NCBI GenBank assembly: GCA_963720265.1
Contig: CAVRET010000002.1
Span: forward strand, 392,704-456,703
Origin: an uncultured bacterium
GTDB taxonomy: Bacteria > Patescibacteriota > Saccharimonadia > UBA4664
Direction of reading: 5' to 3'
DNA length: 64,000 nucleotides
This document shows, one piece after another, positions 3,016-18,647 of the stretch (the first letter of the stretch is position 1; the number at the start of each line of letters is the position of its first letter). A model generated the notes under the pieces. That model ran no database searches, was not told the DNA's origin, and worked only from the letters and a program-made list of their open reading frames with translations. A program made the translations under genes and the position numbers.

Positions 3016-3090
<75 letters not shown>

Positions 3091-3492
3091 TAGTACTTAT
3101 GCTTATTTCCTGCTGTTATAATGTCTGGCATGGCAAAGACATCATCGATGAAGAAGATACTGGGTGAGGTGGAGTTTTTGCTTGAGCGATATTCAAAGGA
3201 ACGCCGAGCCACTACCCAGCCGTTTCTTCTCGAAGTCGTTCAACAAAAGTTTAAGGATTATCGGTATAATCCAGCAGACCTGCTAGTGCGTGAAACCCTA
3301 ATCGAGCACGTGGGCTCTCTCCCGATAGTGGCAACGGCTCTCTTCCCGTATATCGATGACCAGGATGTGGACTTGGGTAAGGCGCTTGTTATGCTTGCGA
3401 TTCACGATATCGGCGAGCTTGCCACCGGAGACGAGATTACCTTTACCAAGAAGTCAGAGTCAGCAGCAGCCGAGCAACACGAAGCTCTCAAA
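3091..3492 (+). repeat. Left copy of a ~400-bp direct repeat (intact); begins at the nucleotide after the tRNA-Met CCA and covers the 5' UTR plus codons 1-124 of the HD-domain gene
   Basis: Near-identical to 14261-14658. The first ~267 nt have one mismatch; thereafter the right copy carries several 1-nt deletions. Confidence 0.9.
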
Positions 3493-3780
3493 TTGCTGCC
3501 CAAGCAATATCATGAACTTTATCTCGACGTTGAATCTAAGTCCTCCCAGACTGCTAAATTTGCTAAGGCGATTGATAAAATCACTCCGGACATACTAGAC
3601 TACCTCACTCCGGGTAATATTACGGTGCCTCGTCTGCGTCACTTTGTTGGGATAGGGAAAGAGGAAATTGTAGACACCATCGTCAAACATAAGCGTCCTT
3701 ACATGCTCTGGAATCCGTTTATGACTGAGTTCCATGTTTACTTGATGGAGTGCCTGTCCGAAAAACTCTCGAACGATTAA
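3121..3780 (+). CDS. HD-domain phosphohydrolase (YfbR/5'-deoxynucleotidase-like)
   Basis: LAIHDIGELATGDE HD motif; 219 aa, the size of YfbR-like HD proteins. Confidence 0.65.
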   Translation: MSGMAKTSSMKKILGEVEFLLERYSKERRATTQPFLLEVVQQKFKDYRYNPADLLVRETLIEHVGSLPIVATALFPYIDDQDVDLGKALVMLAIHDIGELATGDEITFTKKSESAAAEQHEALKLLPKQYHELYLDVESKSSQTAKFAKAIDKITPDILDYLTPGNITVPRLRHFVGIGKEEIVDTIVKHKRPYMLWNPFMTEFHVYLMECLSEKLSND

Positions 3781-3789
3781 GTTGCTGAC

Positions 3790-5511
3790 CTAGTTCCATA
3801 CAATACTGGTAGTGTTGTTGGCCTCAGTACTGCTTAAGCCAGCGTACCAAGCGTGCAGTTCATCCCATACCTGGTTCCATTGAAACCCATCCAAGTCCAC
3901 CAATGTACGACTATTAGAACCGGAGCCAAATAAAAAGGCTTCCCCAAGCAACTTCGACCCTTTGGTCGATTTTTGCGTTTTAAGAGCTAGTTTTTGGGTA
4001 GCCAGTGCTTCTTTAACGTTTCGTAATGTGTTAAAAGGCTCAGCGGCCTTTCCATCGGCTTTAATCTCATCGTCCACCCGGTCAACCAATATCCGCTCGA
4101 AAATCGCCTGATTTATACGTTTGCGTATAATATCCGGTGCGACTTTGTAGGCCGAAGAGGCCTGCTTCATGAGCTCAATCGCAGCCTCTACGTGCTTCTC
4201 CAAGTCGCCAACATCCCTAGAGGCCATCTTAAGGGATGATTCGGCTTGCCGAATATCTTTGGCCAGTTGTTGCTGTTCTTGGGCTACCAAGTCGTCGGTA
4301 AGCTTGCCCGCGTAAAACAACTGCATGAGCTTATGCCGCGAGGCTGTCAGCTGTTGGATGCGTGTCGTTTGCCGCGTGACCTCTTTGTTTGCCGTCTCAC
4401 GGTCATCTTTGAGCAGCCCATGAATTGCCGCCTTAACATCCGAAGCCTCCTCCCCGGACAAATACACCCAACGATATTGCCGCTCAATGACCTGTTCTAC
4501 TTCGGCCACCGGCAAATATGGTAGGTCGCAGCTGGCATATTTCGTAGTCTTGCCGACGCAAAAGTAATACGGATACGTCTTACCGTAGGTGAAGCACAAC
4601 CGGAAGCCGCATCTCCCACAATATATTGTGCTTCTGAGGTAATGGTCGTATTTGCGTGACCTGTCCCCGGCCAGTTTTGCTTTCAGCATGTCCTGGACGC
4701 GCTGGAACAGATCTGGAGGCACGATTGGCTCATGCTTACCGTCATACGCTATCCCCCGGTATTTAAGCTTTCCGGCGTAGTACTCATTGCGCAGTAGCAC
4801 ATTGAGCCCACTCACCCCCAAACTTTTTGCCCCCGATGATTTATGCGGCCGTGCCGTTAGCCCTTTAGCATCGAGAATATCTACCAAATGCACCAGGGAG
4901 TACTGACCGGTGGCGTATTGCTCAAACGCAAACCGCACTAGCTCAGCCCGTTCGGGATCTAGCACCACGGTCTTTACCTCATGCCCTTCGACGATCTGGC
5001 GCGCGTTCACATAACCCAACGGCGCTTTATACGGCGTCCGGCCCAGCCGAGCTTTAATGGTCGCCCCTTTGATAACCTCATCGCTCAGATTATCTACATA
5101 GTATTCAGCCATATTCGCGAGCATACGCTCCATGAACTTGCCGGACGCCGAATCGTCAATGTGCTCAGACACGGATACCAGGCGCACGCCGTCCTCTAGA
5201 AGCGCATACTTCATGTTGGCATAGTCCCGTGTATTTCGGGCCAGGCGGTCGATCCGGTGAAAGATTGCCAGGTCAACATCTTTTGACTCGTGAACGAACT
5301 TCAGCATGGCTTGTAGTTCAGTTCGGTCGGCAAACTTTGCGCTTTCTCCCCGGTCCACGAACTCGCGCACCACTTCTGCTCCCAACTCCTCGGCCTTTTG
5401 GTGACAGGCTTCGCGCTGGGCCGGAATGCTGTATCCTTCCATGTCCAAGCCTTTTCGGGCTTGGTCGAGGGTTGAAACCCTTAAATATATAACGGCTTTC
5501 TTCATAGGCAC
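3790..5511 (-). CDS. Large serine recombinase (integrase)
   Basis: N-terminal resolvase catalytic domain (AVIYLRVSTLDQ...RIDRLARN), recombinase domain, Cys-containing zinc-ribbon (CGRCGFRLC...C..C) and a C-terminal coiled coil; 573 aa. Confidence 0.9.
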   Translation of the reverse strand: MPMKKAVIYLRVSTLDQARKGLDMEGYSIPAQREACHQKAEELGAEVVREFVDRGESAKFADRTELQAMLKFVHESKDVDLAIFHRIDRLARNTRDYANMKYALLEDGVRLVSVSEHIDDSASGKFMERMLANMAEYYVDNLSDEVIKGATIKARLGRTPYKAPLGYVNARQIVEGHEVKTVVLDPERAELVRFAFEQYATGQYSLVHLVDILDAKGLTARPHKSSGAKSLGVSGLNVLLRNEYYAGKLKYRGIAYDGKHEPIVPPDLFQRVQDMLKAKLAGDRSRKYDHYLRSTIYCGRCGFRLCFTYGKTYPYYFCVGKTTKYASCDLPYLPVAEVEQVIERQYRWVYLSGEEASDVKAAIHGLLKDDRETANKEVTRQTTRIQQLTASRHKLMQLFYAGKLTDDLVAQEQQQLAKDIRQAESSLKMASRDVGDLEKHVEAAIELMKQASSAYKVAPDIIRKRINQAIFERILVDRVDDEIKADGKAAEPFNTLRNVKEALATQKLALKTQKSTKGSKLLGEAFLFGSGSNSRTLVDLDGFQWNQVWDELHAWYAGLSSTEANNTTSIVWN

Positions 5512-5565: not shown

Positions 5566-5922
5566 CTAATCCGGCCCAATCGTCTTATCTCGTGCATCAA
5601 ATAGGTAAATCTGCCGATCACCAGTAATAACGGTCGTGCCAAGCTGCCCGATTCGCAGGATGAGATCGTGGTACCGAGCACGTTTAGTCAGGTACCGGCC
5701 GCGGCTGGCAATGGCCAGGTCTATGGGTGTTTGCTCAAGATACGCCAGCATAACGTCAAGTCCTGGCCTCACTGCCGCGTCGGCCTTTACTCCGGCATCG
5801 ACAAACTCGGCCTCGATAACCGCACCGAGCTGAATAGCCATATCCTGACAAGCAATCCGTTGCTGCTCAATGGGCTCATCGTTTTTTATTGGCTGAACAC
5901 AAATATATAACCGCATGCACAA
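5566..5922 (-). CDS. Degenerate serine-recombinase (resolvase) catalytic-domain-like protein; the catalytic Ser position is not conserved
   Basis: RPGLDVMLAYLEQ..IDLAIASRGRYLTKRARYHDLILRIGQLGTTVITGD resembles resolvase core motifs. The N-terminus LYICVQP sits where IYxRVST is expected. Confidence 0.4.
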   Translation of the reverse strand: MCMRLYICVQPIKNDEPIEQQRIACQDMAIQLGAVIEAEFVDAGVKADAAVRPGLDVMLAYLEQTPIDLAIASRGRYLTKRARYHDLILRIGQLGTTVITGDRQIYLFDARDKTIGPD

Positions 5923-5982: not shown

Positions 5983-6831
5983 TTACTTCTGGGCCAACCC
6001 CGACATCCGCTTAATGAGCAGCGCATATGTGTCCTCATGTTGTAGCAAAACCGTAAAGATCGAACCTAGGTCTTGGTATGGCGAGCGTTTGCGTACTTCT
6101 TTGCGAATATATTCTTCCATACGTTGCTCGCGGTCTTCGTCAAGCACTAAAAATACCACGCGCGGAAAGATGCCATCATAGTACTTCTGCTCCCGCCCTG
6201 TATGAAAATAGTCGCAGTACTGCTTAACTTTTTCACCAATCCGCTCTAGTCGCTCGGTTCCCATGTCGACCTCAATGAATCGGGGGAAGAGTTTGCCCTT
6301 GTCGGTGAGTACCACGAATGCGTCAGGCCGCAGTATCTGATCCTTGCCCCAAGAGAATCGTCGCCAACAATGCGGCTCAGCCACGAATTGCTTCAACGTG
6401 GGCGTCCACTCGGCATCAGATCGTTCCCGGTATGTGACGTATAGTTCGGTAACCGCCAGCCGGTGCTTAAGAAACGGTGCTTCTGGGTAGGGATCGCGCC
6501 AGTAATTAGGCTTATCCGGCATGGCAATCACCTGTCCTACTCGGTCGAGTGCGTAACAATACGGATCTGATCCACCGCCCAGGCCGCCGTTTGGTAATCG
6601 CCATCGGACAACTACTTCGAGGTCCTTTAGTTTCCGTAAGGCGATATTGCGCATCCGTACGCGAGACAAGGATGTGCCGGTAGCAAAGTGCAATCGCTCA
6701 ATCTGCTGACTGGTTGCAATTCTGACAAGTGCTAAGGCCTTGATGATATCTAGTGCCTTTGGTGACAGTTGCTGCCGAATGGTATAAACTCGGTTACCCG
6801 TGAGGCGTGAAGATTTAATCAAGATATACAC
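5983..6831 (-). CDS. Replication-relaxation (Replic_Relax) family protein
   Basis: Its N-terminal wHTH-like segment and overall 282-aa architecture resemble Replic_Relax proteins of actinobacterial integrative/plasmid elements. The assignment is by recall, not by search. Confidence 0.5.
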   Translation of the reverse strand: MYILIKSSRLTGNRVYTIRQQLSPKALDIIKALALVRIATSQQIERLHFATGTSLSRVRMRNIALRKLKDLEVVVRWRLPNGGLGGGSDPYCYALDRVGQVIAMPDKPNYWRDPYPEAPFLKHRLAVTELYVTYRERSDAEWTPTLKQFVAEPHCWRRFSWGKDQILRPDAFVVLTDKGKLFPRFIEVDMGTERLERIGEKVKQYCDYFHTGREQKYYDGIFPRVVFLVLDEDREQRMEEYIRKEVRKRSPYQDLGSIFTVLLQHEDTYALLIKRMSGLAQK

Positions 6832-8758: not shown

Positions 8759-10075
8759 CTATTCGGGCTTGGGCGATTGGCCCGTTGGTGCAGCTTTCTT
8801 GGTTTTCTTCCGGCCTTTTGGCCGATTACTTATCTCGGCGAACTCTTCGGCCGAATACTTCACCCATAGAGCGTTATTTCCAGCGTCAAGTCTAAAGGAA
8901 GTCCGGCTTTTGTCTTGGTGTGGCTCTTTGTAAATACTCCGCATAGCATCTAGCACGAAGTCCAGTATTTGCTCCTGGGCGTCGGGACTTGGGAAACGGC
9001 GGGCCAAGAGGTCTGTATATGTCTCCAAGGACAGGGCCATCGCGGCCTTAAATGCGTATCGCTCAGATAGGTTGCGTTCTTTCAGGTACTGACTCCACGC
9101 AAGGCCAAATAAAACCAATAAGGGCGTGAGGTAGACCAGGCGTGTTAGGGCTATCTGTTGCAGCGTCTGTGTTCGATGGGTGAAGGCAAGTATTACTGCG
9201 ATACCGACGATCAGGATTGCAATACCCACCACGCCATTGAGCCAGCTGCCAGACTGTCGCTCGACTGCTTTGCGTCGTTCGTCAAAGGCATTTGCGAGTC
9301 CGGTGTCGGTTGCGAGTTTGAGAACTTTTTCGATCTGTTCCCGTAGGTTCTCGCTCTCACTTTTTGTGTTGTTTATAGCTTCGGAGTCAGTCTGAGCCTG
9401 ATCAAGAAGCTTCTTTATTGCCACTACATCACCCTGGGACTGCCCTTGGAGTGCTCGAATGTCGTCGGTAAGTGATTTAGACTCAGCACGCAAAGCCGTT
9501 ACCTGATCAATAGCGGCCTGGAATCCTGTCGAGGGCTCGTCAATCTGTGCTTTGAGCTCGATGAAAGCTTGATAGCCCGCCCTCATTTCGCCAAGGTTGG
9601 CCTTAACTCCAGACAAGTCGGTTTCGATTTGTTCGACGAGTGTCGTCGAACGACTTGCTTCACCTGTAATCTGGCGGATTAGCTCCGCGGCCTTATTTAA
9701 CACCGCCTGTAATCCAGCACCCGGTTCATCTATCTGCATTTGGAGCTGTTGGAAAGCCGCAAATGCGCTCGCCATCGTGCCCGCGTGTGTCTGGACCTGA
9801 GACAAGGTGGTTTGGATTTCGGTTAATGCAGCGGTGGCTTGGGAACTCTGAGCGCGGATTTGGGCAATCTCTTGCTCCACTCCTTCCAACTTAGCTTCAG
9901 CGCCGATTGTTGGATCTTCAACACGCTTCAGTAGCCCCTCGGAACGAGACAGGTAGCCGTCAAGCTTGGTAGCGATTTCTTCGGCACGATCTAAATCGCT
10001 TTGTACCTGCTCAACTTTGGCGGCAAGCTGTTTACCGACTACGTCTAGAAGCGCCTTTAACTCTTTCTGATTCAT
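8759..10075 (-). CDS. Coiled-coil protein with internal sequence repeats and two C-proximal TM helices
   Basis: Repeated blocks F(Q/I)QL(Q/K)(M/A)QIDEP(G/S)(A/T)G(L/F)QA; hydrophobic segments GVVGIAILIVGIAVILAF and LVYLTPLLVLFGLAW. Confidence 0.55.
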   Translation of the reverse strand: MNQKELKALLDVVGKQLAAKVEQVQSDLDRAEEIATKLDGYLSRSEGLLKRVEDPTIGAEAKLEGVEQEIAQIRAQSSQATAALTEIQTTLSQVQTHAGTMASAFAAFQQLQMQIDEPGAGLQAVLNKAAELIRQITGEASRSTTLVEQIETDLSGVKANLGEMRAGYQAFIELKAQIDEPSTGFQAAIDQVTALRAESKSLTDDIRALQGQSQGDVVAIKKLLDQAQTDSEAINNTKSESENLREQIEKVLKLATDTGLANAFDERRKAVERQSGSWLNGVVGIAILIVGIAVILAFTHRTQTLQQIALTRLVYLTPLLVLFGLAWSQYLKERNLSERYAFKAAMALSLETYTDLLARRFPSPDAQEQILDFVLDAMRSIYKEPHQDKSRTSFRLDAGNNALWVKYSAEEFAEISNRPKGRKKTKKAAPTGQSPKPE

Positions 10076-10416
10076 TGGGCACCAGGATAATAGCTTCCGC
10101 CATAGTAGGCTCTAAATAGGCAATCATCAAGCTTAACCGATGTAACTTGATACTGCACGGGCTATGACGGCCGTGGAATACGGAGCTCGAAAATCTCACC
10201 TCTCCAAACCACCAGATCCCCGCCGCTTAACTGGCGCGCTTAGAACCTGCAGGGTGCACATTTTACGGACATGACCTAAGCCCTTTCTCGTTTTGCAATT
10301 ATCGACGCATCAAACTGCCTGAGAGTGGTCTAAAAAGTACCCCGATTTTACCATAAGGATTTTAATCCTCAACGCTCGCTGTTGATCCCAGATTACAGAA
10401 CCGCAGCTGTACCGTA

Positions 10417-10980
10417 ATGTTACGCTATAACTGGGATTCAATAATTAAACTCGTCATGTGGAAAAGACTAAACTCCAAAACACTGCTTAACCACCCACGA
10501 CTCGTAGTTGTAGAAGATGAAGTCGAATTACCAAACGGTCAGATTGTCGATTATGTAAGATTCGACGGAAATCGTAGGAGCGTAACGGTTATTTGCGTCG
10601 AGCGGGACAAAGTCCTCATTCAGGACGAATACTCATACCCACCTAATGAAGTACTCAAAGAGTTTCCCGGCGGTGGAATTGAAGAAAGCGAAACTCCCAA
10701 AGAAGCTGCCAAGCGCGAGCTTATCGAAGAATGTGGTCTGCTCGCCCACAACCTCACTGGGCTCGGCTGGTATTACATCAATAACCGTCGCAGTGCCGAG
10801 AAAATGTATGTATATCTTGCAGACAACGTCACTAAACACAGAAAAACCGGCGGCGATCCTGAGGAGAACGCCCGACAATCTTGGGTAACTACCAACGAGT
10901 TAAGTAGCATGATTGCCGGTGGCCACATCACCAACTACTCAGTGCTCGCAGCGTGGGCAATATACAAGAGCAAGCAATGA
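10417..10980 (+). CDS. NUDIX hydrolase (ADP-ribose pyrophosphatase-like)
   Basis: Nudix box GGGIEESETPKEAAKRELIEECG. Confidence 0.8.
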   Translation: MLRYNWDSIIKLVMWKRLNSKTLLNHPRLVVVEDEVELPNGQIVDYVRFDGNRRSVTVICVERDKVLIQDEYSYPPNEVLKEFPGGGIEESETPKEAAKRELIEECGLLAHNLTGLGWYYINNRRSAEKMYVYLADNVTKHRKTGGDPEENARQSWVTTNELSSMIAGGHITNYSVLAAWAIYKSKQ

Positions 10981-11786
10981 TAACCGAGATATCTCTTATT
11001 TCCCTAAACATTGCTGGCTTCCCATTCCCACATCACACTCATGCCAGAGTAGCGGCGTTTTGTAGGTCAATCAAATCTTCCGATGCAATAGTAATAAATC
11101 TTCAAGAAGTACATACGTATGCCTTACTTTGGCAGCTCCGTAGGCGCCTGCCGCAATTCCCACACATCAGCTACAATCTCGGAATGCTAGGTCCACGAGC
11201 CGGGCTCGTCACATTCTCGAGACTTCCGATTCAAAGCCAGGACTTCTTTGCGCTCGCGCCAGCCACTAGCGTGCTACCGCACAGTAAACAACCGCCAAGA
11301 GCCATGATGGAGAGCAAGCATAAAGGGGTGCTCATAACACGACTAGGCTCAATGATTATTATGAACGCCCACCTCAACCCCAATATGGATGGCGATTGGT
11401 CGCGGGATAATCGCTTCTATCCGGTACATAACGTCCAGCTCGAAGCAGTCAACAAACTGGTTAATATGAAGTTCCCTGATTCAGTAATAATTCTGAGTGG
11501 GGACTTTAACTTGGCGAAAGACTGCGACTTATTTCCTCAGTTTGTGAATGACGGTAACTGGAATGACACCTTTTCCAGCGATCTGACGCCAACCTTCCAC
11601 TCTGAGTTTCTTAAACCCGGTAGAACCCCACACTGCATAGACTATGTATTATTCCGTGACCCAAAGAACAAATTAAAAGTTGAACAAACCGCATTCATGG
11701 CTGCAGATAAGATCAAGCTCAGAAACGGTGTCGAGTCGTATATCTCAGATCACCTCGGGTTATACGCCAAGCTGACAGGACTCTAG
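10953..11786 (+). CDS. Endonuclease/exonuclease/phosphatase (EEP) family protein
   Basis: INLQEVH, SGDFNL and SDHLGLYAKL motifs typical of the EEP fold; overlaps the NUDIX gene by 28 nt, so they form an operon. Confidence 0.7.
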   Translation: MGNIQEQAMITEISLISLNIAGFPFPHHTHARVAAFCRSIKSSDAIVINLQEVHTYALLWQLRRRLPQFPHISYNLGMLGPRAGLVTFSRLPIQSQDFFALAPATSVLPHSKQPPRAMMESKHKGVLITRLGSMIIMNAHLNPNMDGDWSRDNRFYPVHNVQLEAVNKLVNMKFPDSVIILSGDFNLAKDCDLFPQFVNDGNWNDTFSSDLTPTFHSEFLKPGRTPHCIDYVLFRDPKNKLKVEQTAFMAADKIKLRNGVESYISDHLGLYAKLTGL

Positions 11787-11857
11787 TGGGATTCGGGGAT
11801 CACCCCGGAGGCATTCGCACGTAGCCTCCAGGGTGATCCCGGCATGAGTTAAAGCCC

Positions 11858-12601
11858 CTACCGAGACCTGAATAGCTTCAACTCAAGGAACTTCGCGATC
11901 TGGACGCCCAGGTACTCGACCCAGCCGGGCACATGCTCGCGCGTCTTCGGAAGGATCCACTTGAAGAAAATATACACTGGGTACTTCCGCCTTCGGGCAC
12001 GGATGAACCGGTGGAACTCACGGTACTCTGGTACGTCGTGGAACCCTGCCCCAGACGCCATGATGAGCTTGGCCAGCCGATGTGCAACCGGCCAGTCCTT
12101 GTCTCGCATTACGCCGCCGTTTGTCACGAACGTGTGATATAGCGTATTAAGCTCAAGCGTCACGATCGTGTGCCCGAAAAAGCTCCGCTCTACTGGCCGG
12201 AAGAGGCTTGTTGGTACGGGCATACGAAGATTCCGATGAGTCAGGTACGAGAGCTTCTCATCGGGCCGGAAGTCGATGTGCACGGCTGACGGATGGATCT
12301 CGAGATTAATCGAGAAACCCTCCGCTGTAGCCAGCGCCCTCCGGTAAGGTTCGACACGGGGAAGATCAGCGTGGGGTATTAGCAGATCCACGTCAGGCAC
12401 CTGTTGATGGACGAGCCTTGCTCCCGGTCGGCCGAATCGAGCGAGTGCCGGGTCGTTAAGATACGAACTCGTGGCAAGGCTGCCGATAATTCGGTACTCG
12501 ATGCCGTGCTCTCGGAACCATGCTTGTATCTCATCAAGCTTCGCCAGGAAGAGCACTCGCAGCTCAGCTGGTGAAGCGTCCTCCAACGGTCGTTTTGGCA
12601 T
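11858..12601 (-). CDS. Hypothetical protein with a weak nucleotidyltransferase-fold-like motif (GS...DVDLLI)
   Basis: IIGSLATS....PDVDLLIPH resembles a Pol-beta NTase hG[GS]..D[hD] motif, but the spacing is atypical. Confidence 0.35.
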   Translation of the reverse strand: MPKRPLEDASPAELRVLFLAKLDEIQAWFREHGIEYRIIGSLATSSYLNDPALARFGRPGARLVHQQVPDVDLLIPHADLPRVEPYRRALATAEGFSINLEIHPSAVHIDFRPDEKLSYLTHRNLRMPVPTSLFRPVERSFFGHTIVTLELNTLYHTFVTNGGVMRDKDWPVAHRLAKLIMASGAGFHDVPEYREFHRFIRARRRKYPVYIFFKWILPKTREHVPGWVEYLGVQIAKFLELKLFRSR

Positions 12602-12627
12602 AATTATGTCTCTCCGCTCGGATGGGG

Positions 12628-13764
12628 TCAGCTTTGCCTGATCGACCGGCGCATGTCTTGCAGTAGGAATGTTTCCAACTGAGAGACGAGTGACGGGTGG
12701 TTTGTAGCGATGCCGACCTCTGACGTTCTACCGGCTAGGAAGCCGTTGAAGATGTTAGACCCGTAAAGGCCCCAGTCATCTGCCAGAAGTCCCTTGGCAT
12801 GTGTCATGCCGCCGTTTTCGCGGAACCGGAACACATGAACTCCGGCCGCTCCCATACGGTCAAAGTCGGCCTCGGTTGGCGCTAGGACTCGTCGGTTGTT
12901 ATGCAAAGGGGCTATCACCGACACATCAGCTCGCTGCTCGCGTGCCGACTCGCTAAGGACTCCTTGCATGCCAGAGCCCCACAAGTACGCTGACTCGATG
13001 ATTACCCGTCGCTGGGCCCGCCCAATAAAGAACTGGACGAGCGGCAAGATGAGTGATCGCCGGTATGAATCTGTGACTACGAGCCCGTCGCTATACGGCA
13101 CGATCCTACCTGGGTTGTACTCTGCCCACGTACGGTCGATGTCGTCTTTCAGTACGAGCACCACGTCACCGGTCATCTTGACCATGAAATCGTTCCAGGA
13201 GGCGTTATGCTCGGAGAGATTGATTCCGCCCGCATAGGCTACGGCTAGCTCTGGTGCGTCGCCGTCAATCACGACGATCTTCTTGTGGTTTCTCCTCAGA
13301 GCCCGATACTTCATGCGGCCAAGAGGATTAACCATGCGCACTTCAATACCCTCTCGGCGCATAAAGTCGATCAAGTGGAGGGTTGCCCTCCACTCCTCCA
13401 GGGTTTCCCGATAACGCCACGGCTGGAGGCGAGCGAGCAGTAGATACTCGTCGTTGTGGCTAAGGTTGATATAATCGTCGATGCCGAAACGGACTGGAAT
13501 ACCCGATCCTCTCGCCTCCATAAGGGCATGAGCCACCGGGAGTCCGACAGCGTCGGCCTCGAAAGTATGAAACTGGAGGTCGATTCGCGAGGAAGCTTGG
13601 CTAATCCCCGGAATCAGGTCTGCCAGGAATGTCTCGGCACTCGGCAGAAGCTGGTAGGTGCAAAGATTAGCCGGCGTTGCGGCATTGTGTGCGGCCAGAA
13701 GCGAAGCATACTCACCAACCGAAACGACGGTAACCGCACGTGCTCTTCGCTGAGTCATTATCAA
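12628..13764 (-). CDS. Phospholipase D (HKD) superfamily protein; cardiolipin-synthase/Nuc-like
   Basis: Two HKD motifs: NHKKIVVIDG...GGINLSEHN and THAKGLLADDWGLYGSNIFN. Confidence 0.8.
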   Translation of the reverse strand: MIMTQRRARAVTVVSVGEYASLLAAHNAATPANLCTYQLLPSAETFLADLIPGISQASSRIDLQFHTFEADAVGLPVAHALMEARGSGIPVRFGIDDYINLSHNDEYLLLARLQPWRYRETLEEWRATLHLIDFMRREGIEVRMVNPLGRMKYRALRRNHKKIVVIDGDAPELAVAYAGGINLSEHNASWNDFMVKMTGDVVLVLKDDIDRTWAEYNPGRIVPYSDGLVVTDSYRRSLILPLVQFFIGRAQRRVIIESAYLWGSGMQGVLSESAREQRADVSVIAPLHNNRRVLAPTEADFDRMGAAGVHVFRFRENGGMTHAKGLLADDWGLYGSNIFNGFLAGRTSEVGIATNHPSLVSQLETFLLQDMRRSIRQS

Positions 13765-13904: not shown

Positions 13905-14261
13905 CTATGCACGCAAACTGGTTGCTCGAAGAGCAATATAGCGACCGCGATTGTCTCGAAGCTGAGTGGCAATATTTGGCCCGCGCGACCGCAGCTTTAC
14001 ACCGCTAACAGTTAACAATTCGGCGAGCCGCTCACGATTTATCCCGCTTAAACCGGCCAGCTCCCGAAGCGTTGTACCGGACTGGTAGGCGAGGACAAGT
14101 CTATTTAGCTCGGCCGCGCTGAGCTGCCTAGTTCGGTTCCGGAGCCGTATATGACGCCTTCTAACTACTGGCCACGATTCCCAGCCTTGTAGGTCCTGGT
14201 TAAGTTTGGCGCAAACTTCATATGCCTCGGCTTTCTGATAGCTCTCACGCAGAACCACCAA
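13905..14261 (-). CDS. Small HTH-domain protein, paralog A (putative element-end regulator or directionality factor); TTG start
   Basis: TLRELAGLSGINRERLAELL is an HTH-like segment. It is a paralog of 18276-18647, and its first ~45 nt recur at 14661-14704. Confidence 0.5.
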   Translation of the reverse strand: MVVLRESYQKAEAYEVCAKLNQDLQGWESWPVVRRRHIRLRNRTRQLSAAELNRLVLAYQSGTTLRELAGLSGINRERLAELLTVSGVKLRSRGPNIATQLRDNRGRYIALRATSLRA

Positions 14262-14658
14262 AGTACTTATGCTTATTTCCTGCTGTTATAATGTCTGGCA
14301 TGGCAAAGACATCATCGATGAAGAAGATACTGGGTGAGGTGGAGTTTTTGCTTGAGCGATATTCAAAGGAACGCCGAGCCACCACCCAGCCGTTTCTTCT
14401 CGAAGTCGTTCAACAAAAGTTTAAGGATTATCGGTATAATCCAGCAGACCTGCTAGTGCGTGAAACCCTAATCGAGCACGTGGGCTCTCTCCCGATAGTG
14501 GCAACGGCTCTCTTCCCGTATATCGATACCAGGATTGGACTTGGGTAAGGCGCTGTTATGCTTGCGTTCCGATATCGGCGAGCATGCCACCGGAGACGAG
14601 ATTACCTTTACCAAGAAGTCAGAGTCAGCAGCAGCTGAGCAACACGAAGCTCTCAAAT
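14255..14658 (+). repeat. Right (degraded) copy of the ~400-bp direct repeat
   Basis: Aligns to 3085-3492 at an offset of 11170. It carries 4 single-nt deletions and several substitutions after position ~14527. Confidence 0.9.
14291..14658 (+). pseudogene. Frameshifted 5' fragment of an HD-domain gene (duplicate of the 3121-3780 gene)
   Basis: Identical N-terminal 79 codons, then frameshifts; truncated at codon ~124. Confidence 0.85.
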
Positions 14659-14660
14659 AG

Positions 14661-14704
14661 CTAGGCCTCGGCGTTCTGATAGCTCTCACGCAGAACCACC
14701 AAAG
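14661..14704 (-). repeat. Third, orphan copy of the 5' end of the small HTH gene (encodes only ..VVLRESYQNAEA then a stop)
   Basis: ggcctcggcgttctgatagctctcacgcagaaccaccaaag matches 14224-14263 and 18576-18616. Confidence 0.7.
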
Positions 14705-14762
14705 TAGTTATGCTTATATCAGAATGACAGATTACGACCGACCTAAGGCTTATACTTAAAGC

Positions 14763-15374
14763 ATGGGCAAAGTAGGCCGAAATGATCCATGCCCGTGCGG
14801 CAGTGGAAAGAAGTTCAAGAAGTGTCATTATGGCGACTATGACAGTACTTTCTCACTCGAAGATACAAAACTGCCAGTCGTGACCTGCAGCGTAAATGAC
14901 GACTTTCAAGACTCTGGCTTAGCCGTCGTTTTTGTAGCTAGGCAGCATAATAACGGTCATAATTTGAACATTGTCTGCTATCTTTGCGACATATTTTGTC
15001 TCGGAGTTAAGAACGTTAGCAAGTACCCATCCTCGTCTATTCGCACCGTCGAAACCCTGCAAGAGCGCTATGATCTCGATTTTATGGACATCGATTATCA
15101 GGACGCACGGGACTTGATTTTAGGTAGCGTTCGCTACGCTGGCAATCTTGGGTTTCAACCGCATCGGGACTGGGAGCGAGCCGAGCACTTCATTGAGTCT
15201 GATCAGCCCTTCGATTCTAACCGCTTCTCTTACGGATCTGATGGACGGCCACTCTATGTCGCCGGACCTGATGACGATTATGATTACATCATGTCGACTT
15301 TGAGAGAATGCGTCGGAGAAGGTAGCTTTGAGTACGTAATCGAACCCGGTATGGGCTTTGATACAAAGATTTAA
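14763..15374 (+). CDS. SEC-C motif domain protein
   Basis: N-terminal [16 protein letters not shown] (SEC-C metal-binding motif); the rest is uncharacterised. Confidence 0.65.
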
Positions 15375-17572
15375 AATAAGCTCATTTGATCTGTGCTAAT
15401 CCGCCCCTTCTTGCTAGTGGCTGATTGTCGAGCGATGCCAAGACTACGATATGTCCGCAATCGCTTAAAATACATTGCTTTCAACATTGGTACCCTTAAG
15501 TCGCTGTAATCGTATACAAAAGTTTGCTGGGGTGATGCCGCCGCACTTCGCTGCAATCGACCAACGTACTGAACCACCTTGCCCTTATACGTGAAGGGGA
15601 AAACTAAAAACAAATGGGTCAGTTCCGGCCAGTCAAACCCTTCACCGATGAGCTTCCCAGTAGATATCAGGAGTTTAAAACGCTCCTGAGTAATACGCCT
15701 TCGCAGGCCTGCTCGCTCTTTTAGGGTGTTCTTCCCGGTCACAATTGCGGCATGCGTGCCTTTAGACCGCTGCCTGACCAGATCCAGCAGTATCTGACAG
15801 TGCTCCACTCGCTCGGTTAATACAAGGCACTTTGCGCCAGCCTCCAGCGCAGCTGCAATGTCATCAGCAATCATCTCATTGCGCTCGTTGTCAGCGATTA
15901 GTAGAGATGCTACCTCGTGAAATTCAGAGTTCCTTCGGCCAGCCAGTTCAAACTCAGTGGTCTTCACGACAAGAGACATAGTGGTAATTGGCTCCTGAGA
16001 AAGCTTCGAATCGCCTATCGGTTGGGTCTTGCTTGATACGCGTAAAATTGACCCAATGTAAAACTCCAGCATCCGGTCTAACTGATCTCGCCTCATGGCG
16101 GTTGCAGTTAGCCCCAGTACGTATTTCGCTTCGAGCAACTTGAGCACATTCGTAAATGTTCTGGCGGGTACGTGGTGGCATTCATCGATTATCACGAAAC
16201 CAAATGTGCTGCGGATATCCTCTACGCCGCGCCTATTGAGCGTCTGATAAGAGGCTAGCGTAACTTTACGACCAAGCTGCCATTTGCCTTCCCCAATGAT
16301 GCCAAGATCATCTTCTTTAAGGTCAAAGCACTCGCGAATACGTGTGGCCCATTGTTCAAGGAGTTCTCGAGTATGAACAATGATCAAAGTCTTCTGTCGT
16401 AGCTTACTCATACAGTAAAGGCCCACAATCGTCTTGCCGAACCCGGGGCCAGCTTCCAGGATCGATCTAGGTTTAGCAAGCAGTTCATTCGCAGCTCGTC
16501 GTTGCTCCGGCCGAAGCTTTATGTTCGATTTGACCCGCGTGACAGGTACAATCGCCTGTTGATCGTTGAAGGTTAGCTTAACCTTAGTCTTTTCGGCAAA
16601 CCCACTGATTTCTGTTAAAAATCCAGCTGGAATCAAGATGCCATCCTGTCCTTTTTCTATTGTGGTTATGTAGCGGGGTATGGCATGGGTTGAATAACCG
16701 TTACGCTGGCTCTCCAGGTACTTAGGGTTAGGAAAATTGAGCCGCGATTTTAAGAACTTATAGAGCTCTGCTGGCAACGAAGTCGCCGGTATATATATCT
16801 GGTTACTTAGTACAAGTTCAGCGTGAGATCCGTCAGCAGGGCTATATGCCAGATCTTCGTACTTGTCACATACGTCAGGATCAGCTTGCGGCTTCTCGGC
16901 AGTCGTGTCCGGTGGAGCCAATATGCGGTCTATAGTTAGTTCATCAACTTTAGTCATTGCTTTCAGGATGCTCCACTGGTCCGGATAAGCCTCCCCACGT
17001 TCATCTATAAAAGCTGCCCTACCGGTTGTGATCAGCTCCCCTTGCAGGGGTAGAGCGATCAAATTCCCGAATCCCCGACCAGTATGAAAATCCTGGCTAG
17101 GGAACAATCTATCGTAACTTTGCCGTCGCGTTATGCCCGCCCGCTCAAGTAGCAGTTGCCCCAACTGCCTTGCCTTGGCGCCAGGAATGGTTGTTTGAAA
17201 GAAGATCCATACATGGGCACCATCACCAGATCGTGACCGCTCAACGTAAGCCGGTATGGAATACCTTGCCGCGCTTTTACAAAACCGGTCGGCTTCGTGT
17301 AGCCAGTCGCCGTGGTCAAAGTCCGCAGCCATGAAATACGTAGAGTTTTCCTTAAGAAGGGGATATATGCCGATAGTAACACTGCCGTTCAGGTGAGCCG
17401 CGATAGTGGCATCTGTGAGACCTGCGGGCTGCTTGTTAATAGTGAACACCGGAGCGTATCCGATTCTATTAGCCGCTGGGTTTTGCCAAAGTTTGGCATA
17501 CACGTCAGTGCGCCCACGAAACAGTGAACGGTATAAGCTAATTTGCTCTGGGGTAATAACGCCAGTGTTCAA
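15371..17572 (-). CDS. Primase-polymerase (PrimPol/AEP-like) N-terminal domain fused to an SF2 DExH helicase
   Basis: N-terminal motifs AADFDHGDW and [13 protein letters not shown] (AEP catalytic motifs). Helicase motifs: Walker [16 protein letters not shown], and a C-terminal helicase domain. Confidence 0.7.
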
Positions 17573-17675
17573 TAAGATATCCTAAGCCAAAATACAGATA
17601 CATATTATACCCAAAAGTCTATCCAACATATCTGGTAAATGGTATAATTAGACTAATTAAACGGTAGCAGCGGGT

Positions 17676-17870
17676 ATGGCAGCACGAGATTGGCGAAAGC
17701 TTTACCAACAATATCGAGGACAGTGGGTCGCTCTCAAAGAAGATGAGATCACCGTAATTGCTAGTGGCTCAACGCTAAAAGGAGTACTCGCTGAGGCGGC
17801 AAAGCTTAGCTATCCCGATCCGCCTCGCGTAACCAAAATGCCATCTGACCTGCGGGTCTTCGTAGGTTAA
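17676..17870 (+). CDS. Small protein (64 aa), possibly DUF5678-like; partner of the downstream protease
   Basis: Stops 4 nt before the start of the next ORF; no catalytic motif. Confidence 0.4.
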   Translation: MAARDWRKLYQQYRGQWVALKEDEITVIASGSTLKGVLAEAAKLSYPDPPRVTKMPSDLRVFVG

Positions 17871-17874
17871 CGGC

Positions 17875-18261
17875 TTGAAGTTTAAATACGTCCAGTATTC
17901 GGGTACGGTCGTTCGTCCTGTTATTCCAATACGAGTGAGCAATGGCAAGCAGACAATAGCCTATGATGTGCTTGTCGATTCCGGTGCGGACATTAATGAC
18001 TTCGATGCAGAACTAGCTGAAGTGCTCGGTATTGATTTGAAAACTGGCGTACCGGCCGAGGTCATGGGACCAACTGGCTATCCTGCGGAAGTGTATATTC
18101 ACCCCGTTAAGCTAACTGTCGGCGAGCATACATTTACAGCTCAAGTTGCATTTATGCCGACATCAAATCCATTTGGGCTTGCCGGGCAACGTGGTTTCTT
18201 CGACCAATTTGAGATCAAGTTTAATTTACGTGAGCAAGAAGTAGAGCTTACAAAACTTTAA
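17875..18261 (+). CDS. Retropepsin-like (clan AA) aspartic protease
   Basis: LVDSGADIN is a D(S/T)GA catalytic motif; the 128-aa size is typical of retropepsin-like domains. Confidence 0.65.
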   Translation: MKFKYVQYSGTVVRPVIPIRVSNGKQTIAYDVLVDSGADINDFDAELAEVLGIDLKTGVPAEVMGPTGYPAEVYIHPVKLTVGEHTFTAQVAFMPTSNPFGLAGQRGFFDQFEIKFNLREQEVELTKL

Positions 18262-18275
18262 GGCCGTAGCGTTAA

Positions 18276-18647
18276 TTAGGGCGCCCCCAAATATCTGCCT
18301 TTCTCATCCCGAGGTTGGATGGAGCTATTTGGTCCGCGAGGCCGTAATTCGACTCTAGAGGCCCGAATCAGCAATGCTAACCGTTCCCGATTGATACCAA
18401 ATTCTTGAGTCAATTCTCGTAATGTACGCCCAGCCCGGTAGGCGTCAGTTGCTTTGGCGAGTGTCTCTTCCGCCAGATGCACCGAACGACGTCTCACGCG
18501 TTTAGCTCCACAAGTTCGTGCGCACCAGTTACTCCGGTCTTCCAGATCTTGGCTCAACTTTGTATATTGAGCATAGGCTTCTGCGTTCTGATAGCTCTCA
18601 CGCAGGACCACCAAAGAATTATCAGTGTTCCTCACCCAGCGGCTCAT
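18276..18647 (-). CDS. Small HTH-domain protein, paralog B
   Basis: LVVLRESYQNAEAY...TLRELTQEFGINRERLALLI; paralog of 13905-14261. Confidence 0.5.
   Translation of the reverse strand: MSRWVRNTDNSLVVLRESYQNAEAYAQYTKLSQDLEDRSNWCARTCGAKRVRRRSVHLAEETLAKATDAYRAGRTLRELTQEFGINRERLALLIRASRVELRPRGPNSSIQPRDEKGRYLGAP

Follow-up and report, generated by a model that had tools for sequence, protein, structure and literature searches.

In a 64,000-nucleotide stretch of genome from an uncultured Saccharimonadia bacterium (GCA_963720265.1, contig CAVRET010000002.1, positions 392,704 to 456,703; here called the window), the minus-strand gene at 15371-17572 encodes a 733-amino-acid (aa) fusion of an archaeo-eukaryotic primase (AEP, or Prim-Pol) domain and a superfamily 2 (SF2) helicase. 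On balance, we favor the reading that this gene is a distant, catalytically intact member of the family of the E. coli insertion sequence (IS)-excision enhancer, IEE, that it is carried as accessory cargo of a low-GC mobile region at a tRNA-Met gene, and that its product acts in DNA synthesis or end joining. The observations behind this reading are direct: the domains can be identified, the catalytic residues are retained, the protein is homologous to IEE over its full length, the surroundings are those of a mobile element, and no partner gene is conserved.

Homology to the IS-excision enhancer

The open reading frame (ORF) consists of 733 codons plus a stop codon (15371-15373) and begins with TTG, 7 nt downstream of an AGGA. 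Its coordinates agree exactly with those of an earlier model-generated annotation of the stretch (the original prediction), which had not given the strand. The N terminus is retained in a relative, L001 (tblastn, residues 1-733). All motifs quoted in the original prediction (the AEP pair, GPGFGKT, DECHH, and TAT) were found in the ORF. Toward the N terminus, AEP motif I, DFD (17315-17323; aa 84-86), supplies D84 and D86, the counterparts of IEE D142 and D144; SRSGDGAH (17213-17236; aa 113-120) ends in H120 (IEE H178), and the motif III region YDRLFPSQD (17090-17116) includes D154 (IEE D216) and D161. The helicase part carries the Walker A motif GPGFGKT (16430-16450; aa 375-381), DECHH (16172-16186; aa 463-467), TAT (aa 489-491) with a RED-like RRD (together 16085-16108), and QYVGRLQR (15548-15571; aa 668-675), in which R672 corresponds to IEE R735. 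This set of AEP and helicase motifs in one 733-aa ORF is far beyond chance.

Conservation was read from two alignments, A2 and A3, comprising 16 and 58 homologues, respectively. Residues D84, D86, S113, S115, H120, D154, D161, K380, DECHH, TAT, R494, G671, R672, and R675 were invariant or nearly so. Among them, D84, D86, K380, D463-H466, T489-T491, and R494 were invariant in both alignments, D161 was likewise invariant, and H467 was invariant in A2 and nearly so in A3. Judged from these alignments, the predicted AEP and helicase activities are both under purifying selection.

IEE (ECs1305/Z1568 of E. coli O157) is a characterized AEP-SF2 fusion (PMC9943667). One match in the plasmid collection was a 786-aa protein of E. 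coli O157:H7 EDL933, encoded inside an integrase-AlpA-YfjI-Gp2 element. D142, D144, H178, D216, K451, and R735 all lie in this protein at the published IEE positions (PMC9943667), and because the catalytic residues sit at exactly those positions, we identified it as IEE. The window protein is collinear with IEE and 34% identical to it (BLASTP; E 5e-118; query 7-712 versus IEE 47-774), and IEE itself matches Pfam AEP-TOTE (1.7e-98) with a Pfam architecture identical to that of the window protein. Both proteins have an AEP-TOTE Prim-Pol domain, a small domain, and a DEAH SF2 helicase in the same layout, both genes are cargo of integrated mobile elements, and every published IEE catalytic residue has a retained equivalent in the window protein (D84, D86, H120, D154, K380, and R672). 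In the classification outlined in PMC5862659, IEE falls in the "Z1568-like" family, 1 of 13 classical AEP families, and a Prim-Pol-plus-helicase ("CAPP-Helicase") type has been described as prevalent among CAPP relatives outside CRISPR loci (Zabrady 2021). Because these proteins share its architecture, the fusion in the window is of a kind already known.

E. coli IEE is an Mn-dependent, error-prone DNA polymerase that joins 3' overhangs via microhomology, for which both domains are needed (PMC9943667; bioRxiv 10.1101/2023.06.07.543989); its ATPase is DNA dependent and does not unwind DNA (PMC9943667). In vivo, as these accounts describe it, IEE promotes transposase-dependent excision of copy-out-paste-in IS elements (PMC9943667; bioRxiv 10.1101/2023.06.07.543989). 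These properties are known from E. coli IEE alone (PMC9943667; Kusumoto 2011, cited therein).

Members of the family vary around this common core. After the GYxP motif (window aa 41-49; A2 columns ~90-115), IEE and many Proteobacteria have a Cys-rich insertion (C..C..KCxDCxH), Bacteroidota and some Patescibacteria have a non-Cys one, and the clade of the window protein has none. Insertion types were scored by regular expression and 59 of 87 proteins were unparsed, so that the subtype frequencies are only indicative. At the other end of the protein, two family members carry an extra DUF559/REase_MTES_1575 endonuclease domain, and Bacteroidota homologues of ~990 to 1130 aa have a ~300-aa unannotated C-terminal extension. 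C-terminally extended members were seen at L066 7956-10826, L077 1757-5347, L018 7992-10955, and L029 7980-11348. The N-terminal extension and Cys4 insertion of E. coli IEE are subfamily traits and do not define the family; on sequence comparison, the 733-aa protein represents a minimal, compact form of it.

Domain architecture and structural relatives

An AlphaFold2 model built on 58 homologues (mean pLDDT 87.3) divides the protein into an AEP part (aa 1-220), a disordered linker (aa 222-240), a small domain (aa 245-340), and two RecA-like domains (aa ~350-500 and 550-710) with an insertion between them (aa 505-550). The AEP catalytic domain (16925-17548; aa 9-216) matches Pfam AEP-TOTE (1.9e-68) and the PADLOC model for Cas-associated PrimPol (6.8e-63); a weak PADLOC match to RT_UG10_large covers aa 92-194. 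In a Foldseek search of the PDB, this part aligned with the Marinitoga CAPP Prim-Pol (7nqe/7p9j; TMt 0.78-0.80; rmsd 2.7-3.5 Å; 25-26% identity), and a profile search of PDB sequences matched CAPP 7nqd (6e-30). CAPP (Marinitoga MsCAPP/MpCAPP) is the closest solved structure to the AEP domain, by sequence and by fold. Unlike CAPP, however, the window protein lacks a TPR domain and a PriL-like C-terminal domain.

The linker (16853-16909), modeled with low confidence (pLDDT <50) and variable in the alignments, leads into a confidently modeled small alpha/beta domain (16553-16840). Because the match to phage and viral helicases starts near residue 250, we assign this domain to the helicase module. 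RecA-like domain 1 (16097-16522; aa 351-492) matches Pfam ResIII (6.4e-25), and RecA-like domain 2 (15443-15925; aa 550-710) matches Helicase_C (5.2e-7, at aa 576-675). XPB chains were the top Foldseek matches to the helicase part (S. tokodaii XPBII and TFIIH XPB; 9e-23), T4 UvsW and RadD also scored high, and the XPB and UvsW alignments spanned ~490 to 500 columns. The profile search of PDB sequences returned XPBII (3e-39) together with RadD and UvsW. An R-R-D that includes the invariant R494 directly follows motif III, spaced as the RED motif is in XPB; the NCBIfam XPB model gave a significant match, far under the family cutoff. Over aa ~250-710, nothing matches better in structure or sequence than XPB/Rad25, UvsW, and RadD. 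Like the window protein, these have a small N-terminal domain ahead of RecA domain 1, but none has a polymerase domain, and the window protein lies outside the TFIIH and XPB-Bax1 systems. The small domain at aa 245-340 and the insertion at aa 505-550 are candidate counterparts of the damage-recognition domain and the thumb of XPB, respectively. The N-terminal AEP domain and the complete C-terminal SF2 DExH helicase that had been proposed from the motifs are borne out by these results: profile searches and structure prediction recovered the AEP fold, and the homologues did not prove to be ordinary Res subunits.

Names such as AEP-TOTE and ResIII, together with a subthreshold match to the NCBIfam model PrimPol_Msp for CRISPR-associated PrimPol, would fit a component of a multigene TOTE system, a CRISPR-associated CAPP, or a type III Res subunit. 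We find this scarcely credible, and it is largely refuted by context. TOTE denotes TPR, OB, TBP, and Effector, and its partner genes, as outlined in PMC12458937, encode a TPR-cold-shock (OB) fusion and a TATA-binding-protein homologue. No TPR, OB/cold-shock, or TBP protein was found within ~10 kb of the gene in the window. Elsewhere, TPR proteins accounted for only 2 of 144 immediate neighbors (Pfam), and no TBP or OB family was among the 25 commonest families of those neighbors; TOTE operon membership was rejected on these grounds. CRISPR association was rejected as well: a domain scan of neighboring ORFs revealed no cas genes, no CRISPR arrays were found near the gene, and the PrimPol_Msp score, although significant, was 104 bits against a family cutoff of 200. 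A type III Res subunit was dismissed in the same way, since there is no Mod methyltransferase near the gene, Pfam detected no nuclease domain in the protein, and ResIII covers only the generic RecA-like domain 1. The earlier label of a type III restriction Res-like helicase is imprecise: the closest relatives of the helicase and its small N-terminal domain are XPB, UvsW, and RadD, and no Mod or nuclease partner is present.

Replicative Prim-Pol-helicases (pRN1 ORF904, D5-like proteins, and the PrimPol-PV1 group) resemble the window protein in joining an N-terminal AEP domain to an NTP-driven DNA motor and in being encoded by mobile elements. Their motors are SF3, D5, or MCM ring helicases, usually accompanied by PriCT, zinc, or winged-helix modules (PMC5862659). 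The motor of the window protein, in contrast, is a repair-type SF2 helicase, and a Pfam scan of the 733-aa protein detected no PriCT, zinc, or winged-helix origin-binding module.

The mobile region and its 4-kb block

GC content falls from ~0.58 to 0.48-0.52 across 4 to 18 kb of the window, next to a tRNA-Met gene (3016-3090). Beyond this tRNA gene come an HD-domain gene, a large serine recombinase (573 aa; 3790-5511), a Replic_Relax gene (5983-6831), NUDIX, EEP, and PLD genes, and a helix-turn-helix (HTH) gene. Adjoining the recombinase is what looks like a fragment of another, a 118-aa ORF (5566-5922, minus strand) whose resolvase domain is reduced to its N-terminal portion. Among the genes that the first unit carries as cargo (8759-13764) are those for a coiled-coil protein of 438 aa and a protein of the PLD family (12628-13764), NUDIX (10417-10980) and EEP (10953-11786) genes that overlap each other, and a 247-aa ORF without annotation. 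The segment at 3085-3497, which holds the tRNA-Met 3' flank and the first ~125 codons of the HD gene, is duplicated at 14255-14662 (97-99% identical), where the HD copy is a pseudogene through small indels. No matching attL-type junction was found at the tRNA gene; the tRNA-proximal copy looks like an intact attB.

A 59-nt junction sequence is present in three copies (14221-14279, 14662-14720, and 18574-18632), each of which contains the 20-nt core TTCTGATAGCTCTCACGCAG, identical in all three. In each copy, the core spans the 5' end of an HTH gene or of a fragment of one. Encoded in the junction is the N terminus (VVLRESYQ) of two paralogous HTH-like ORFs on the minus strand (13905-14261 and 18276-18647) and also that of a third, truncated copy, of which the 5' end is present (14662-14703). 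The 59-nt repeats bound the tandem units, so that the "second tandem unit" of the original prediction corresponds to a real repeat structure, a ~4-kb block (unit 2, 14662-18632) flanked by the direct repeats 14662-14720 and 18574-18632.

Besides the AEP-helicase and the minus-strand HTH-like ORF, unit 2 contains the SEC-C protein and the protease pair that had been named as neighbors. The convergent SEC-C-motif gene (14763-15374, plus strand; 203 aa; Pfam SEC-C 2e-10) overlaps the AEP-helicase stop codon by 4 nt, and DUF5678 (17676-17870, plus strand) and a retropepsin-like aspartyl protease (17875-18261, plus strand) are divergent neighbors (Pfam). The DUF5678-protease pair has no PADLOC match; it recurs at L001 1568-2168 and at L002 4886-5486 and 10315-10905. 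The block is 82% identical to positions 4526-8497 of L002, a Saccharimonadia metagenome-assembled genome (GCA_035510295.1), and 79% identical to a block in L001, where a tRNA-Met gene lies 1.7 kb beyond the SEC-C gene. The SEC-C gene is syntenic with the AEP-helicase in both. As a conserved partner across the wider family, however, SEC-C was rejected, since just 3 of the 89 loci, those of close relatives, have it next to the gene.

The orthologue in L002 (5576-7773) has two frameshifts and in-frame stops, one of which lies inside the SRSGDG motif. Because this copy is disrupted, we regard the gene as accessory and dispensable. The same disruption, together with pseudogene fragments in the island (the HD copy at 14255-14662 and the HTH 5' end at 14662-14703), would also fit a functionless remnant of a degenerate element. 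We consider this very unlikely: the window ORF is intact over 733 codons, keeps all catalytic motifs, and has a plausible ribosome-binding site, and the L001 orthologue (80% identity) is also intact.

The 4-kb block has no recombinase of its own. A quite improbable, more far-reaching proposal is that the Patescibacteria clade is a stripped-down IEE and that the block is a miniature integrative satellite, which the PrimPol-helicase would replicate or mobilize and which would borrow the large serine recombinase of the neighboring element at tRNA-Met.

Distribution, gene neighborhoods, and function

A protein search recovered 7,939 proteins at E <= 1e-5 among 8,000 candidates scored, and nearly all of the top 120 matches had the three-domain architecture, a length of ~730 aa, and a Patescibacteria source. 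A scan of a single genome for each species found a relative encoded in at least 596 species. The best 80 of these at least 596 loci were full length (32-36% identity) and came from Bacteroidota, Proteobacteria, Bacillota, Verrucomicrobiota, Acidobacteriota, Chloroflexota, Planctomycetota, and Patescibacteria. Full-length homologues were also encoded on 97 plasmid records. By comparison, none of 50,697 phage records held a full-length match, and only ~11 of 254 relatives in IMG/VR were full length. A metagenome scan with the single protein as query returned three loci, one of them a duplicate of L001. The architecture is reportedly present in >30% of E. coli assemblies (PMC9943667). The AEP-SF2 fusion is common across cellular genomes and plasmids, and viruses seldom carry it. 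The architecture had been called uncommon, a view that these counts and the known IEE/Z1568-like and CAPP-Helicase types overturn: the fusion is not unusual, the IEE family spans many bacterial phyla, and Pfam AEP-TOTE includes IEE. In one Patescibacteria locus (L100 4313-6172), the IEE-type gene lies ~800 nt from a canonical dnaG-rpoD operon; because of that operon, this host has its own bacterial primase besides the AEP.

One possibility raised in the original prediction was a replication initiator, in which primase and helicase would prime and unwind the 4-kb unit or a larger element after excision. AEP-helicase fusions are classic mobile-element replication proteins (PMC5862659), the CAPP Prim-Pol domain is a primase (PDB 7p9j, a primer initiation complex), the gene is the only large one in a discrete repeat-bounded block, and homologues are found on plasmids. 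Recombinases are often nearby in Patescibacteria: a Ser/Tyr recombinase lies within 10 kb in 6 of 10 distinct contexts in this phylum, and within 7 kb in 17 of 94 loci overall. Nevertheless, we regard this role as unlikely. It is made less likely by a motor that is of the monomeric SF2 type, in the XPB/UvsW/RadD repair class, rather than an SF3, SF4, or MCM ring, by an ATPase in IEE that does not unwind, by carrier plasmids that have their own replicons (e.g., IncFII RepA on pDSJ06), by the rarity of the fusion in phages, and by the pseudogene copy that L002 tolerates. In addition, no origin-binding winged-helix domain was found in the protein, and neither iterons nor tandem repeats were found near the gene.

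ORF clustering across 89 loci revealed no conserved partner gene, the best family being present in 8. Pfam scans of the 144 immediate neighbors from ~80 loci most often returned AbiEii (11), DUF6088, AAA_14/DUF4143, HipA, resolvases, Schlafen/AlbA_2, DUF6155, and Fic. In the E. coli elements at L013 3052-9229 and L096 4000-10223, the IEE-type gene comes after AlpA-YfjI-YfjJ, a slot occupied in E. coli K-12 CP4-57 (L015 5645-12154) by abpB/abpA, a Hachiman-type pair made up of an SF2 helicase (AbpB) and a Cap4-nuclease/HamA protein (AbpA). AbpB (HamB; YfjK, 729 aa) resembles the window protein in being an SF2 helicase of similar size that shares this island slot. We rejected it as a family member, since it has no AEP domain, gives no significant BLASTP match, and shows no homology beyond the generic helicase core.

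The main rival to our reading is a defense role, which we consider possible, although not probable. The protein would then be a stand-alone anti-phage or anti-plasmid effector related to the CAPP, DRT7, and TOTE Prim-Pols, in which the helicase would sense foreign DNA or load onto it, and aberrant DNA synthesized by the AEP domain would block the invader or trigger abortive infection. Several observations are consistent with such a role. The Pfam family carries the name of the TOTE conflict system, the best PADLOC match is the Cas-associated PrimPol, neighbors elsewhere include AbiEii/AbiEi, HipA, Fic, Schlafen/AlbA_2, AAA_14-DUF4143, and HsdM, the E. coli IEE-like genes share their slot with Hachiman (abpAB), and some variants end in a DUF559 nuclease. 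DRT7/UG10 PPRT likewise fuses a related CAPP-type PrimPol to a second nucleic acid enzyme, although its partner is a reverse transcriptase-like domain with a long C-terminal domain and not an SF2 helicase; DRT7 has dual roles in defense and damage tolerance and protects against phage (PMC12439943). However, PADLOC 2.0.0 contains no defense-system model for the AEP-SF2 architecture, and when it was run on the other island genes, nothing beyond noise from short motifs and coiled coils came up, with no decisive defense match. Literature searches returned no published phage-defense phenotype for IEE. The neighbor classes are equally typical of mobile elements, and their "enrichment" is descriptive only.

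Our favored reading, an IEE-family enzyme of DNA synthesis and end joining, takes all enzymatic activities and the in vivo substrate from E. coli IEE. By this analogy, the SF2 module with its small N-terminal domain would bind DNA, hydrolyze ATP in a DNA-dependent manner, and hold or remodel duplex DNA and DNA ends. The AEP domain joined to it would then carry out distributive, error-prone, template-dependent DNA synthesis guided by microhomology, the outcome being gap filling, strand switching, or end joining rather than processive replication. Broken or abortive intermediates left by mobile-element transposases or recombinases would be the substrates, and the surroundings of the gene (the large serine recombinase, Replic_Relax, repeated junctions, tRNA-Met, and the drop in GC) are those of a mobile element. 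The two roles first suggested, replication initiator and conflict module, are both possible but less well supported; what the closest characterized relative suggests is a polymerase of the repair type that also joins ends and acts on mobile-element intermediates.

Several points weigh against this reading. At 34% identity, IEE is a distant relative, and the two proteins may differ in function; what IEE does physiologically is itself a matter of debate, and the activities ascribed to the window protein come by homology. The window protein is 53 aa shorter than IEE, without the ~45-aa N-terminal extension, and its clade lacks the Cys4 (or equivalent) insertion after GYxP. The TOTE name of the Pfam family fits defense equally well, as do family-wide neighbors rich in toxin-antitoxin, Abi, and restriction-modification genes. 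The host, too, differs from that of IEE, being a member of the Patescibacteria, and the genes beside the window copy (SEC-C, DUF5678, and the retropepsin-like protease) are not those that accompany IEE. The 26 kb of the window that were scanned showed no transposase gene, and for this reason IS excision in the narrow sense would not be the local role.

What the locus adds is a modest new point, namely, that a compact IEE subfamily is common in Patescibacteria and rides on recombinase-bearing islands. As a minimal version without the insertion, the 733-aa protein could suit biochemistry. These data suggest that the role of the IEE family is broader than enhancing IS629 excision in E. coli and that the family may provide a general end-joining or template-switching polymerase, or an anti-mobile-element function.

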